Source: Rickettsiales bacterium (lineage in GTDB: Bacteria; Pseudomonadota; Alphaproteobacteria; Rickettsiales; Rickettsiaceae). Taken from it: a DNA stretch of 64,000 nt. Under the pieces are notes generated by a model that had not been told where the DNA came from, did no database searches, and saw nothing but the letters and a program-made list of their open reading frames with translations. Shown here piece by piece: positions 58,730-63,687 of this stretch (positions are counted from its first letter, which is position 1; each line of letters opens with the position of its first letter). The DNA lies in contig JANNVO010000053.1 of NCBI GenBank assembly GCA_031414475.1, positions 641 through 64,640 on the forward strand, written 5' to 3'. The position numbers and the translations under genes were made by a program.

Positions 58730-58963
58730 TTATATACTTTCATAAAAATAGGAAATGTCCCTATTTAAAACTTTGGCCAATAAAGCTAATCTCGATGCGC
58801 TAATTTTATTTGTTGCGTCCTCATATTTTGCAATTTGTTGTTGAGAAACCCCAGCTTTTTTTGCTAAGTCTGACCGGCTCATATCTCCACCTACTCTTAG
58901 GTTGTATATTTTTTTGCCAATAAGTTTATCTATTTTATCAAGTTGATCATCTATATGTTTCAT
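58730..58963 (-). CDS. XRE HTH regulator
   Basis: SRSDLAKKAGVSQQQIAKYEDATNKISASRL. Confidence 0.88.
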   Translation of the reverse strand: MKHIDDQLDKIDKLIGKKIYNLRVGGDMSRSDLAKKAGVSQQQIAKYEDATNKISASRLALLAKVLNRDISYFYESI

Positions 58964-58984
58964 ATTAATACTTCTGTTTTTGGT

Positions 58985-59368
58985 TTAATTGTGTTCTATC
59001 ATCACTATAATTGCAGGACACATCAGCACAATGCTTATAACTATTCCAGCCGTTATTTTCCCTGTTTTTAAAAGAGTACTAGAATTTTTATTTTTTAATT
59101 CTAAAACTATCCAACTCAAAATCAGCCACATAAACAACCAATATATCATACCAACCAAAAAATAAGCCCACGCTAGATCTTTACTGGACTCTGCGTAAAA
59201 ACCTACAGCCATTAATCCTAAAATATGCGTTTCAATTTTCTTGCCGTCCTGCCAACTTGGTATACTCCAATCACTGGTTATGAAATTGTAGAAAAAAATT
59301 CCTGCTAGAATAAATAGCACTATGTGGGAGTACAGAAATATTATAATTTCCTTGGCTAACTCTAGCAT
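58985..59368 (-). CDS. Hypothetical multi-TM protein
   Basis: 127 aa with four hydrophobic segments. Confidence 0.65.
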   Translation of the reverse strand: MLELAKEIIIFLYSHIVLFILAGIFFYNFITSDWSIPSWQDGKKIETHILGLMAVGFYAESSKDLAWAYFLVGMIYWLFMWLILSWIVLELKNKNSSTLLKTGKITAGIVISIVLMCPAIIVMIEHN

Positions 59369-59393
59369 ATTAATTCTCCTTTTATGTTGATAC

Positions 59394-59699
59394 TTACTTT
59401 GTTAGTGCAAGAAAACCAAACACTATCCCAAAGGCTGCAAGCGCCCCAAGAGCTGCTTTTCCGGCTCTTGTTGATCTTTGAAGCATGTTGCCATCACTAA
59501 GCACCGTAAATGCTGCAAAAACAAGATAAACAACATGAAGCCAGTGAGCTTCAACCTCCTTAATTAGTGCATCGCCATAAGGAGAGGTAATCCAGCCGCA
59601 TAATGTTGCCGCTAGTGCTACTGGAATTATAACATAATTGCTGACCCCAGGGTTTTTTCGCGCTTCTTTCTGATCATTTTGTTTATTATCAGTAGTCAT
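59394..59699 (-). CDS. Hypothetical small membrane protein (3 TM)
   Basis: 101 aa; AAGAGGA RBS; starts MTTDNKQND. Confidence 0.7.
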   Translation of the reverse strand: MTTDNKQNDQKEARKNPGVSNYVIIPVALAATLCGWITSPYGDALIKEVEAHWLHVVYLVFAAFTVLSDGNMLQRSTRAGKAALGALAAFGIVFGFLALTK

Positions 59700-59761
59700 A
59701 TAGTTCCTCTTTTGTTATTCATGCATACTTTAAATATAAAGTGTTATACGTGTTATGTCAA
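59673..59761 (-). promoter_or_regulatory. 89-bp promoter/RBS/start cassette, left inverted copy
   Basis: 86/89 identical to 60475-60563. Confidence 0.9.
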
Positions 59762-59895
59762 GAAGCATGTTATATTAAAGATGAAGTTATTTAAGGATAC
59801 ATTAGTATTAATTGGCTAAATTTTAAGCTTCCAGTAGCCTTTCTTCTTGAAATTTAATTTTAAAATCAGAAAAGTACCTAGTAAATTTGGTGTAA

Positions 59896-60563: not shown

Positions 60564-61478
60564 AAAATAACTAAGCGCAAAAAAGTAATGATTTCTGAAA
60601 AAGCTGTTACTTCTTTAGGTATTACAGTAATAAGTATTATTGCAGTGTTTATAATAATTTTCGCTTGTTGCACTAGAATTAAACCCGGGGAAGTTGGGGT
60701 CATTGTAGATTTGATTGGTTCAAAACGAGGGGTAGAAAACAAAGAGTTAACTGTAGGTTTTTACTTTATCCCTCCCTGGAAAGCCGTATATAAATTCCCT
60801 ATATATGAACAAAATCATCAGTGGGTTGGGGAAGAAGGATTTAGTTTTCAAACCTCAGAAGGTTTATCCGTTAATGCGGATATTGGTATAACTTTTAACT
60901 TAGAACCAAATAGAATTCACGAGCTATTTTGCAAATATAGAAGGGGTATGGAAGAAATTACTCACTTATTTATCAGGAACAGTATTCGAGATTCTATTAA
61001 CAGAGTAGCATCCAAAATGAAAATTGAGGATTTGATTGGTTCTAAAAAAGAAGAATTTTTTGATTTAGTACTGGCAAATGTTGCTCAGGAGTTAAAATCT
61101 ATAGGGTTTAATATTTCTCATATTTTTGTTATAGGAAAATTTGAAGTACCGGAGCTGGTTATGCAAGCCTTAAACAAGAAAATAGAAGCTACTCAAAGAG
61201 CTCAACAACGAGAAAATGAACTAAGAGAATCTGAGGCTCAAGCAAGAAAAGAGATGGCTTTAGCTGAAGGTATAGGAAAAAGCAAGATTATTAGTGCTAA
61301 AGCTGAGGCAGAAAGTTTAATAATAGCAGCAACCTCCAAAGCTAATGCTAATAATATACTTTCTAGATCTCTTACTGCCGATTTATTAAAATGGGAAGCA
61401 ATTGCTCAATGGGATGGTAAATTACCTAATGCATTAAGCGGAGAAAATGCAGGGTTTTTAATAGATTTAAAAAAATAA
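60537..61478 (+). CDS. SPFH/prohibitin/band-7 family protein
   Basis: TM anchor, IKPGEVGVIV, FQTSEGLSVNADI, coiled coil KIEATQRAQQRENEL, QWDGKLP. Confidence 0.9.
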   Translation: MTTDNNQNDKITKRKKVMISEKAVTSLGITVISIIAVFIIIFACCTRIKPGEVGVIVDLIGSKRGVENKELTVGFYFIPPWKAVYKFPIYEQNHQWVGEEGFSFQTSEGLSVNADIGITFNLEPNRIHELFCKYRRGMEEITHLFIRNSIRDSINRVASKMKIEDLIGSKKEEFFDLVLANVAQELKSIGFNISHIFVIGKFEVPELVMQALNKKIEATQRAQQRENELRESEAQARKEMALAEGIGKSKIISAKAEAESLIIAATSKANANNILSRSLTADLLKWEAIAQWDGKLPNALSGENAGFLIDLKK

Positions 61479-61764
61479 AGTTACTATATTAGAGTTTGTT
61501 ATAGGTATTATAGTATTTCTGTACTCGCATGTAGGGTTATAGATTTTAGCGGGGGCTTTTTTCTATAATTTCATAACCAGTGATTGGAGTGTACCAAGTT
61601 GGCAGGACGGCAATAAAATATATCACCTGAGAACAGATAGAGGTATGGGTCAAAAGATTGGCACGAGTCACATTTGGGCTCAGAACTTGTAGAAAACACG
61701 GCTTAAATATTGAACAATATACTACTTGAAGTACAATAACCAACATCATACATGAGAATGAATA

Positions 61765-62508
61765 ATGACAAAAATACAAAATGAACTATCTATCTATTTA
61801 AAATATTTAAAACGTGATGTTTTAACTTTAGTCAAACTCATTGCCTATCCACTGACGTTTATACTTTTTAGCTACTTCGGTCACTGGGCATCCAATAATG
61901 CATTTTTGGATAATAAAGAAATCACCGGATTTAACCCAATACCTTGGCAGTATTTCCCATACTTATTCGTTATAATTGCTATATATACAGAATTCGGTTA
62001 TCTTTATTTTGATAAGAAAAAGACTATAATAAACGCTATAAAATCAAATTCTATTAAATTAGATGCGAGTACAAATTTCGGCTTATTTTTAATATCAAAT
62101 AAATTATTTGATAAATCATTATACTCACTTGAATTAGACGGACTTAACCTTACGCTAGGGGATACGAATGATTTAATTAAAATCCTCAATAACAATTCTA
62201 TTAGCAACCTAACTATTCTTAATTGTACTTTTAGTGAAAAGCAATTGATCCTTTTGATTCCTTATATTAAAAATACTAAAACTTTAATAAGCTTTAGGAC
62301 AATAGGAACTAACTTAAGCAAACAAATAGAATTAAACGAGTTTTCCCCTAATTCTGGTGCGGAATTATCTGCCATTATAGACGAAGTAAAAACCTCGCTT
62401 AGTGCGTGGGAGGCCTTCTTAACTAGACGTAATGTTTTTGATGGAACTCCTCCGCCAAAAGACCTGTACTACGATAAATATAAGCTTATAATCCCTGATT
62501 CTAAATAA
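61765..62508 (+). CDS. Hypothetical protein: two TM helices plus LRR-like segment
   Basis: LYSLELDGLNLT / ISNLTILNCTFS / LISFRTIGTNLS periodicity. Confidence 0.6.
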   Translation: MTKIQNELSIYLKYLKRDVLTLVKLIAYPLTFILFSYFGHWASNNAFLDNKEITGFNPIPWQYFPYLFVIIAIYTEFGYLYFDKKKTIINAIKSNSIKLDASTNFGLFLISNKLFDKSLYSLELDGLNLTLGDTNDLIKILNNNSISNLTILNCTFSEKQLILLIPYIKNTKTLISFRTIGTNLSKQIELNEFSPNSGAELSAIIDEVKTSLSAWEAFLTRRNVFDGTPPPKDLYYDKYKLIIPDSK

Positions 62509-62528
62509 TTTAACTAGGAGAAAAAAAT

Positions 62529-62900
62529 ATGCACAAAATTATTTTTATATTTAAAAATAACATAGCAGACATACTAACCACCTTTGTGGTTCTAACATTA
62601 ATTGTGGTAATAGCTCTAGCCCCTGCTTCTGCTCTGGATATTCCAACAAAAACCTCTGTTTGCAAAGAAGTAGGGCAAGGAAGATACCAAAATCTAGACA
62701 AATTCCTTAAACCGACCAGTAGCTTAAGAGACATCAAGCTTAATAATAATGGTGAGCCTATCTATACTGGGCAACAAACTTTAGAACTAATGACATTAAA
62801 CGCAGAATGTGGAGTTCGGATAATGCCTTTCACAGGAGTTTTACTTGGTACAATTGAGGATATTGAAAACATTTATACAAAATATTTTAAAGTCCGATAA
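62529..62900 (+). CDS. Hypothetical exported protein
   Basis: Signal peptide-like segment ending ASA; two Cys; GGAG RBS. Confidence 0.65.
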   Translation: MHKIIFIFKNNIADILTTFVVLTLIVVIALAPASALDIPTKTSVCKEVGQGRYQNLDKFLKPTSSLRDIKLNNNGEPIYTGQQTLELMTLNAECGVRIMPFTGVLLGTIEDIENIYTKYFKVR

Positions 62901-62928
62901 TAATTAAATTGAAACTTACAGACTTATT

Positions 62929-63687
62929 ATGAAAGTATTAAATATTGATCCAGCAACTTGTAAAAGATGGAAATATGCCGATAGAGCTGAATCTGAATTT
63001 TTCAAAATTAATGAACTTGCCGAAGATATTCTAAGGAATGGTCAAATTAATCCTGTCCTCATTAGGCTAAGTGACGATAAAGAATATGAATATGAATTAT
63101 TTGCGGGAGCTAGAAGATGGAGAGCTTGTTTATTAGCACGTATTCCACTTAAAGCAATTCTCACAGACTTTGATGACAAAGAAGCTGCCATATCCCAAAT
63201 TAAGGAAAATGAAAAAGTTGGAATTTCACCTTATAGTAAGGGACTTTCCTACAATCTTTTGATAAAGAATAAAGTACTAACACAAGAACAGCTGGCAATT
63301 AACATTGGTGTATCGAGATCTAAAATCCAAAGCTTGCTTTGTTTTGCAAAAATTCCAAAATCAGTAATAAATGCTATAGATAACACAGACAAAATTTCAG
63401 CGCGAGCTGCTAATAGCATTTATTCCCTTTCAAGGAAAGGAGATGACTATATCAATGCTTTAATAGAAATTGCAGACAAGATTAAAAATGGGTTGGCTAG
63501 CTATGATATTGAAGAATCCGTTAAAACTATCGTATCAGGTAAAAAGGAAGAGATAGACAATGATATTAGAAATAACAAAGGAGAAATTGTTGCCAGATGG
63601 AGAATGGGTTCTCTTATCATTAGGGCTAAAAACAGTACTGATAGAAGAAAGCTCGCTAAATTAGTGGAATATTTTCTAAATGATTAA
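62929..63687 (+). CDS. parB: ParB/RepB/Spo0J family protein
   Basis: GQINPVLIR, FAGARRWRA CTPase motif, EN, HTH LTQEQLAINIGVSRSKI. Confidence 0.9.
   Translation: MKVLNIDPATCKRWKYADRAESEFFKINELAEDILRNGQINPVLIRLSDDKEYEYELFAGARRWRACLLARIPLKAILTDFDDKEAAISQIKENEKVGISPYSKGLSYNLLIKNKVLTQEQLAINIGVSRSKIQSLLCFAKIPKSVINAIDNTDKISARAANSIYSLSRKGDDYINALIEIADKIKNGLASYDIEESVKTIVSGKKEEIDNDIRNNKGEIVARWRMGSLIIRAKNSTDRRKLAKLVEYFLND

Follow-up and report, generated by a model that had tools for sequence, protein, structure and literature searches.

We analysed a 64,000-nt stretch of DNA from a Rickettsiales bacterium of the family Rickettsiaceae (assembly GCA_031414475.1, contig JANNVO010000053.1, positions 641 to 64,640; hereafter the window). 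Near its end, at 58730–63687, two near-identical promoter cassettes stand in inverted orientation around the gene for a small XRE-family regulator, XRE142. Comparison with related contigs makes it likely that this locus is a recombinational mosaic, in which a portable unit of XRE142, promoter and leader sits on the backbone of one plasmid operon type and carries cargo of another, and in which gene conversion has kept the cassette copies alike. We call the two operon types T-type (TM101 first behind the cassette) and S-type (SPFH first behind the cassette); the backbone of the window is T-type. The locus is a case of modular gene shuffling and not a new class of system.

The inner inverted repeat formed by the two cassettes is real and far beyond chance. 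Reverse-complement alignment of 59673–59761 with 60475–60563 confirmed the 86 identities in 89 positions claimed by the original prediction, and relaxing the ends extended the match to 110 nt at 89% (59653–59762 and 60474–60583). The 7-kb region and its own reverse complement had 96 20-mers in common, compared with at most 1 in 50 shuffles. Each copy holds the elements that had been described: a TTGACA-17-TATATT promoter (an 11/12 match, the two being the best sigma-70-like sites within 57500–64000), ATAACAC-GT-ATAACAC inside the promoter spacer, the ribosome-binding site (RBS) AAGAGGA, and an ATG that opens MTTDN(K/N)QND. On the left this start belongs to TM101 (MTTDNKQND) and on the right to SPFH (MTTDNNQND). 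While both starts were confirmed, the shared stretch is not limited to nine residues, as first thought; apart from an indel, the DNA of the two arms stays homologous as far as about codon 16. These approximately 16 leader codons encode the whole cytoplasmic tail ahead of the first membrane helix. No further copy of the cassette was found elsewhere in the 1.96-Mb, 255-contig genome. As predicted, the only credible gene between the repeats is XRE142 (59896–60324, minus strand, HTH_3/HTH_26). The gene contents of both arms were also as described, except that the leucine-rich-repeat-like label given to a 247-aa protein was not confirmed. The features of the locus, in order, are as follows.

58730–58963, minus strand: XRE77, a small XRE-family helix-turn-helix (HTH) protein (HTH_3, 47.4 bits), the last gene of the left arm.
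58985–59368, minus strand: TM127, a 127-aa protein with multiple transmembrane segments, the sole intact copy in the window; natively it follows SPFH.
59394–59699, minus strand: TM101, 101 aa with three hydrophobic segments.
59653–59762, minus strand: left cassette, on the 3' side of XRE142; the native 5' end of TM101.
59763–59895, minus strand: secondary junction, linking the left cassette to the stop codon of XRE142.
59896–60324, minus strand: XRE142, a presumed repressor of the XRE HTH family, whose C-terminal domain spans ~75 aa.
60474–60583, plus strand: right cassette, on the 5' side of XRE142, with its ~16 leader codons fused to SPFH (-35 TTGACA at 60475–60480, -10 TATATT at 60498–60503, RBS AAGAGGA, ATG at 60537).
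60537–61478, plus strand: SPFH/Band 7 protein, 313 aa, with a leader that was most likely captured and an N-terminal membrane anchor.
61479–61641, plus strand: dead TM127 remnant joined to an XRE77 fragment; its start ATG has become ATA and codon 19 is an in-frame stop.
61765–62508, plus strand: lineage-specific 247-aa membrane protein, in the slot that a 107/119-aa gene occupies in S-type operons.
62529–63687, plus strand: exp123, a signal-peptide protein, and ParB252, both plasmid backbone.

Among relatives, the XRE directly adjoins the cassette in every related locus recovered (more than 20 contigs), and the cassette is recognisably alike in both operon types. The T-type layout occurs in Candidatus Megaera venefica (JARJFB010000096; L055) and more than 12 other contigs (L056–L068, L072–73, L077–78). 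On its backbone side, HU is followed by ParB252, exp123 and XRE142 on the minus strand (L055 and relatives), and its cargo leaves the cassette in the opposite direction: TM101, HU, rhodanese/YgaP, TauE, a metallo-beta-lactamase-fold protein and TspO. In L055 (4398–7558), where the rhodanese/YgaP-like product is a membrane protein and TauE belongs to the sulfite-exporter family, this operon resembles a cluster for sulfur handling, carried on a plasmid and placed under the same XRE. The S-type layout has the XRE divergent from a cassette that drives SPFH-TM127-XRE77-(107/119 aa)-exp123; it is intact in L074, has a frameshifted SPFH in L069/L070, and is also seen in L016. The order SPFH-TM127-XRE77 is conserved in L009, L074, L069 and L016. 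For TM127, these data uphold the original proposal that SPFH is partnered by a small transmembrane protein. The neighbourhood search suggested at that time gave a divided answer: SPFH co-occurs with TM127, but TM101 stands without SPFH in all named relatives. S-type operons conserve TM127 tightly, and no relatives of it were detected outside them in the sequences searched. Distant XRE142 homologues were present in 43 of 121 sampled Rickettsiaceae genomes; those examined (52–59% identity) lacked this cassette and had other neighbours.

Some S-type operons are in decay. A frameshift splits the SPFH gene in L069 (4631–5543), and the cassette ATG reads ATA in both L069 and L016 (around 1050–1090 in the latter). 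Given these frameshifts and lost start codons, the SPFH module appears dispensable in some lineages.

Segment-by-segment comparison of the window against T-type, S-type and L009 contigs, the last being a metagenome contig from a MEGAHIT assembly of another sample, gave the following identities.

XRE77: 95% to L065.
TM127: 87–88%, to S-type contigs only.
TM101 and left cassette: 93–94% to T-type, with TM101 matched in T-type only.
Junction 59763–59895: homologous among the relatives only in L009, at 80% over 123 nt.
XRE142: 95–96% to T-type, 85–87% to S-type.
Native intergenic region between XRE142 and the right cassette, 60325–60473: 93–95% to T-type, 80–88% to S-type and L009.
SPFH: 90–94%, to S-type only.
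Dead TM127/XRE77: 87% to S-type.
247-aa gene: unmatched in the compared contigs.
exp123-ParB: 99% to T-type.

The points at which identity switches between T-type and S-type fall inside both cassettes, at XRE77 and at exp123, all of which are sequences common to the two operon types.

A second, outer inverted repeat, missed by the original prediction, pairs the 5' part of the TM127 gene with the stretch just downstream of SPFH (59235–59383 and 61471–61619; 149 nt at 80%). Translation showed that the right-hand copy of TM127 is truncated after ~45 codons, and a 33-nt fragment of XRE77 directly follows it. Since a dead TM127 and an XRE77 fragment lie downstream of SPFH, the right arm must once have carried a complete SPFH-TM127-XRE77 operon. 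The intact TM127 of the left arm is 76–81% identical to the copies in L009, L074 and L069, all of which follow SPFH, and XRE77 is 58% identical to the HTH protein that closes SPFH clusters on Megaira polyxenophila plasmids. SPFH in the right arm and its usual partners TM127-XRE77 in the left arm now flank the regulator, each behind an identical promoter. The mirror image, first read as a regulon, is best taken as a recombination product that includes this dead second TM127-XRE77. A related trace may survive in L016, L069, L070 and L071, where a 79-nt 3' fragment of XRE77 stands immediately after the XRE stop codon; its orientation is that expected of the scar of a deleted former left arm, which is its probable origin.

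The distribution of the leader indicates which gene acquired it. The 11 TM101 homologues, the most distant at 68% identity, all start with M-x-(T/K)-(D/G/N)-N-(K/S)-Q-(N/S)-(D/N), with the leader M.TDNKQNDQKE. Among SPFH homologues, this start is restricted to the S-type clade, where P0002 reads MTNDNNQNDKITKHK and the SPFH of L071 reads MANDNNQITKSKR. SPFH proteins at 62–81% identity have unrelated N-termini, as do homologues below ~85% generally, and 730 phage-borne homologues align only from residue 47 onward. Because the leader is present in every TM101 homologue sampled and confined to the closest SPFH relatives, SPFH most likely captured the promoter, RBS and tail of TM101, rather than the reverse.

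The contig L009 informs how the two copies have stayed alike. It reads, in order, an inverted cassette, the native intergenic region, the XRE, a junction homologous to 59763–59895, a second cassette and SPFH-TM127-XRE77. Its topology is that of the window, with one cassette beside the XRE promoter and one downstream of the XRE stop codon, except that SPFH stands where the window has TM101. We considered whether the XRE had been flipped between the two and dropped the idea, as the 5' flank and the 3' junction of the XRE correspond in both. Across the 89-nt core, the left and right copies differ at 3 positions in the window and at none in L009, compared with 11 differences between the window and L009. 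The shared junction implies that the duplication predates the split of the two lineages. As the duplication is that old, the near-identity of the copies within each genome points to homogenisation, for which gene conversion from one inverted copy to the other is the simplest route. Both copies in the window also show the same internal mosaic, combining an L009-like promoter spacer with a T-type 5' untranslated region (UTR).

Regulation by XRE142 was considered next to its own promoter and the operator-like elements of the cassettes.

60354–60387, minus strand: promoter of XRE142, TTGTCA-N17-TATATT (60387–60359), a 10/12 match that carries the shared block ACGTTATATTTAAAG.
60494–60509, plus strand: dyad ACTTTA-TATT-TAAAGT, a candidate operator that spans the right-cassette -10, with a mirror copy at 59727–59742 on the minus strand.

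The 1.96-Mb genome has three occurrences of the 15-nt block AC[GT]TTATATTTAAAG, which lies over the -10: one in each cassette and one in the XRE142 promoter. Because it is found at exactly these three promoters, co-repression by one XRE is plausible. A single XRE142 very probably serves both cassette promoters, as this XRE adjoins the cassette in all related loci recovered and the genome holds no further copy of the two operator-bearing promoters. The dyad ACTTTA-N4-TAAAGT is invariant or nearly so across T-type, S-type and hybrid cassettes. The spacer repeat ATAACAC-N2-ATAACAC occurs twice in the whole genome, only in the cassettes. It is less constant in relatives, where we found ACAACAC-GT-GTAATAC, ATAACAC-GT-AAAATAC and GTAGCAC-AT-ATAATAC, such that a loose RYAAYAC-N2-RYAAYAC remains. 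The original prediction was therefore correct in placing ATAACAC repeats in both spacers, but the conserved shared element is the -10 dyad.

Compared with shuffled sequence, the leader RNA has less structure (z +1.2 to +1.4), in keeping with a site of translation initiation; its conserved codons seem to belong to a region for efficient initiation and not to an RNA switch. A riboswitch or attenuator was rejected, as Rfam gave no match and the leader folds worse than shuffled sequence; an upstream mini open reading frame in the 5' UTR (ATGAATAAC...TGA) was also rejected, as neither T-type nor L009 cassettes conserve it. Another contig of the genome (G000 C50:16911-17456) encodes a paralogue of XRE142 at 32% identity. 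The TTATATTTAAAG motif recurs ~150 nt past the end of the paralogue, possibly by coincidence.

Our model for the locus builds on what the comparison showed: the repeats, the mosaic origin of each segment, the layout and junction shared with L009, and the homogenised copies within genomes. The portable unit would consist of XRE142, its own promoter and a target cassette, the last made up of a sigma-70 promoter and its operator, an RBS and ~16 leader codons that are A-rich and unstructured. In plasmids of the Megaira clade, this unit would natively drive either T-type or S-type cargo, divergent from the XRE. Recombination between two plasmid operon types using the same regulator would have left the cassette twice, inverted, around XRE142. 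The copy by the XRE promoter would have acquired the in-frame fusion to SPFH, followed by the dead TM127-XRE77. The copy past the 3' end of the XRE would have kept TM101, now with the sole intact TM127-XRE77 behind it. XRE142 would bind the dyad over the -10, possibly together with the RYAAYAC spacer repeats, and when bound would repress both arms and itself. A second regulator, XRE77, would be supplied from the operon end, and SPFH and the split-off TM127 and XRE77 would stay co-regulated from opposite arms.

Several points weigh against this model. The XRE unit has the opposite orientation to that in the T-type backbone, which requires a flip or several recombinations, and more than one order of the inverted duplication, the TM101/SPFH exchange and the decay of the right-arm TM127-XRE77 fits the data. 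The argument for gene conversion hangs on the single junction shared with L009, whose left arm runs off the contig; taken by itself, the near-identity in the window could come from a recent duplication. For the direction of leader capture, the evidence is limited to 11 TM101 homologues from one narrow clade. Finally, we infer repression by XRE142 and the activity of both promoters from sequence and synteny.

An alternative, closest to the original prediction, is a purpose-built, co-regulated membrane system in which SPFH, TM101, TM127, the 247-aa protein and exp123 form one complex under one XRE, serving entry exclusion, defence or a conjugation switch. The identical cassette promoters, the conservation of SPFH-TM127-XRE77 as an operon elsewhere and the frequency of SPFH homologues as accessory genes of phages and plasmids all fit such a system. 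Its proposed membership does not. TM101 derives from the other operon type, natively heading the HU-rhodanese/YgaP-TauE-metallo-beta-lactamase-TspO operon of Ca. Megaera venefica and relatives. Both exp123 and ParB, which had been listed in the right arm, are plasmid backbone and adjoin the XRE in relatives without SPFH, and the 247-aa gene is found only on this contig. The apparent dispensability of the SPFH module, seen in L069 and L016, also argues against it. An entry-exclusion or defence role found no support either: PADLOC-DB 2.0 returned only generic HTH matches (RmrA, CapH and C-protein N-termini), a best match of E = 0.0069 for SPFH, and none for the transmembrane proteins. We consider such a system unlikely.

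It had also been pointed out that recombination between the repeats would turn round only the XRE, and the geometry bears this out. Near-identical inverted repeats of 89–110 nt are a substrate for recombination, the homogenised copies show that they do recombine, the XRE-promoter unit is inverted relative to the closest backbone relatives (L065 and L055), and terminator prediction found none from the XRE to the left cassette. A switch in which the XRE segment flips at appreciable frequency, altering which arm gets read-through from the XRE promoter and which one a back-to-back divergent promoter, is nonetheless very doubtful. The strong promoters lie inside the repeats, with only the XRE and its own promoter between them, so that inversion leaves every gene connected to its promoter. 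The window and L009 share one topology, and no recombinase is adjacent; the nearest, a serine recombinase at 55675–56238, is 3.4 kb off, with VapBC and HigBA in between. A collapsed or chimeric assembly join at a repeated promoter could in principle fake a mirror image, since the genome is a 255-contig draft and repeats are classic points of misassembly. The arms, however, differ at 3 positions and their flanks differ, each arm has one cassette with none elsewhere in the genome, the repeat is shorter than a typical read, and L009, from an independent metagenome assembly, has the same two-cassette structure and junction. We regard an artefact as extremely improbable. Overall, we find no support for a single membrane machine, for a role in defence or for an inversion switch, and we retain the recombinational mosaic as the likeliest reading.

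A further, quite improbable idea gives the inverted cassettes a function of their own, either as a RecA-type flip-flop of the XRE and its promoter or through the shared lysine-rich tail of 16 residues. The flip-flop, if true, would switch which arm receives read-through and which has an interfering divergent promoter. A functional tail could act as a common signal for targeting or turnover, holding TM101 and SPFH at one membrane site, and would explain why recombination breakpoints always keep it.

The individual genes were assigned as follows. XRE142 scored above the Pfam gathering thresholds for HTH_26 (39.8 bits; cut-off 22) and HTH_3 (38 bits; cut-off 23), and is 94–96% identical to the XRE that adjoins TM101 in Ca. 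Megaera venefica-like contigs. The body of the TM101 gene (59394–59650) has 44% guanine plus cytosine, compared with 30–34% in neighbouring genes and 34% across the window; this excess may reflect an Ala/Gly-rich composition or a foreign origin. SPFH matched PF01145 at 88 bits (cut-off 23.6) and phrog_200 at 6e-64, has a hydrophobic segment at about residues 21–53, and is 93–94% identical to P0001–P0003, sharing its N-terminus only with its closest relative, P0002. It is not HflK or HflC (TIGR01932, 16.1 bits versus 134.4; TIGR01933, 16.5 versus 159.4). No NfeD partner for SPFH was found, as TM127, TM101 and the 247-aa protein had no Pfam or NCBIfam match at E <= 0.01. The 247-aa protein likewise had no PDB match, its AlphaFold model has a pLDDT (predicted local distance difference test) of 41, and it has no counterpart in any related locus compared, which also counts against its place in a complex. 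Its identification with a 251-aa gene that adjoins S-type XREs was rejected, as the sequences are unrelated. ParB was confirmed as a partition protein by TIGR00180 (115 bits versus 58.45), with PF02195 and PF17762 also above threshold. The exp123-ParB pair is 98–99% identical to that of L065 and L055, where it lies directly downstream of the XRE.

The surroundings are of a plasmid backbone type, with ParB, HU, VapBC, HigBA and a resolvase. The nearest named DNA belongs to Candidatus Megaera/Megaira (Rickettsiaceae) plasmids and one Ca. Megaera venefica contig, the latter 98.9% identical over exp123-ParB-HU. The left flank, which includes HigBA, is 97% identical to L065. Its backbone genes are a serine recombinase/resolvase (55675–56238), VapC with an AbrB-type antitoxin (56249–56888) and HigB/HigA (57922–58558). 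SPFH was absent among the 24 other genomes of the genus searched, and on that ground we consider it accessory.

Homologues of SPFH occur in several settings, including a phage-like early region with ERF and YqaJ, next to ParA, and on Megaira plasmids. In L010 (3730–6972), a 70%-identical homologue lies in such an early region beside ERF, YqaJ and DUF1064. On Megaira plasmids, a 144-aa hypothetical gene is followed by a 76-aa HTH gene whose product is 58% identical to XRE77 (L006, 4971–8286; L008, 6915–7584). On M. polyxenophila plasmids, this pair closes a prohibitin-276 aa-SPFH cluster (L006) or follows ParB (L008); a plasmid of the Mesostigma viride endosymbiont (L007, 4905–8290) has a similar layout with different annotation. 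The protein ahead of the 76-aa HTH varies among Megaira plasmids and is not homologous to TM127. We rejected a conserved pair of transmembrane protein and XRE77, as TM127 is dissimilar to both the 144-aa protein of the Megaira plasmids and a 179-aa protein of L065.

Scans of viral contigs with XRE142, TM101 and TM127 returned no relatives. Scans with TTGACATAACACNNATAACAC gave 35 metagenome and 2 genome matches, all unrelated to the locus. Most of these are copies of a ~30-copy dispersed repeat from four metagenome samples (L019–L052; Ga0056131/Ga0056132/Ga0209681/Ga0209788). In each copy, (CA)n-rich sequence precedes the core GGTAATTGACATAACACTAATAACACTTCAAATA; the family is probably a mobile or satellite repeat of another organism. 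Literature searches on SPFH proteins in defence or prophage settings and on Megaira plasmids returned nothing that concerned this module in particular.

Under the mosaic reading, the locus offers a clear natural case of regulatory rewiring on plasmids of intracellular symbionts, in which a unit of regulator, promoter and translation-initiation region is portable and its cargo varies. Duplicated cassettes held identical by gene conversion would keep an operon co-regulated after a rearrangement has split it. The locus also supplies a candidate regulator-operator pair, XRE142 and a 16-bp dyad present at just three genome sites. Few such pairs are available for Rickettsiaceae, a family poor in genetic tools.

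Several known systems bear comparison with the locus. The SPFH core is 52% identical to the product of a 'prohibitin family protein' gene on an M. polyxenophila plasmid and 39–44% identical to 730 phage records, and the Megaira plasmid cluster is, like the operon here, closed by a homologous 76-aa HTH. Unlike in those prohibitins, the N-terminal tail has been replaced by the TM101 leader, and the partner TM127 is limited to a narrow clade. XRE142 is akin to XRE/Cro-CI-type repressors of phage immunity regions, restriction-modification controller C-proteins and the regulators of many plasmid or toxin–antitoxin modules, as a small HTH_3 regulator placed back to back with its presumed target promoter; the block common to its own and the target promoter suggests autoregulation. 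Here, however, the target promoter is present twice, mirrored around the regulator, each time with an RBS and ~16 codons, and the operator is a candidate. Inverted repeats that flank a short segment also recall the invertible switches of Salmonella (hin), E. coli (fimS) and Mycoplasma (vsa/vsp), in which one promoter is moved and a dedicated recombinase acts on short sites; in vsa/vsp, the inverted repeat lies within the 5' coding region. In the window, both repeats carry a promoter, a flip would alter only the orientation of the regulator, and no dedicated recombinase is adjacent. In the 'upstream homology box' loci of Borrelia (erp/ospE/ospF/elp on cp32), a block of promoter, operator and leader is common to unrelated plasmid genes, has been spread by recombination and confers co-regulation by way of its common operator. 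The Borrelia copies lie on different plasmids in the same orientation context and their leader is a lipoprotein signal peptide, whereas the two copies described here form an inverted repeat around the regulator on a single replicon, and their leader is a cytoplasmic tail.

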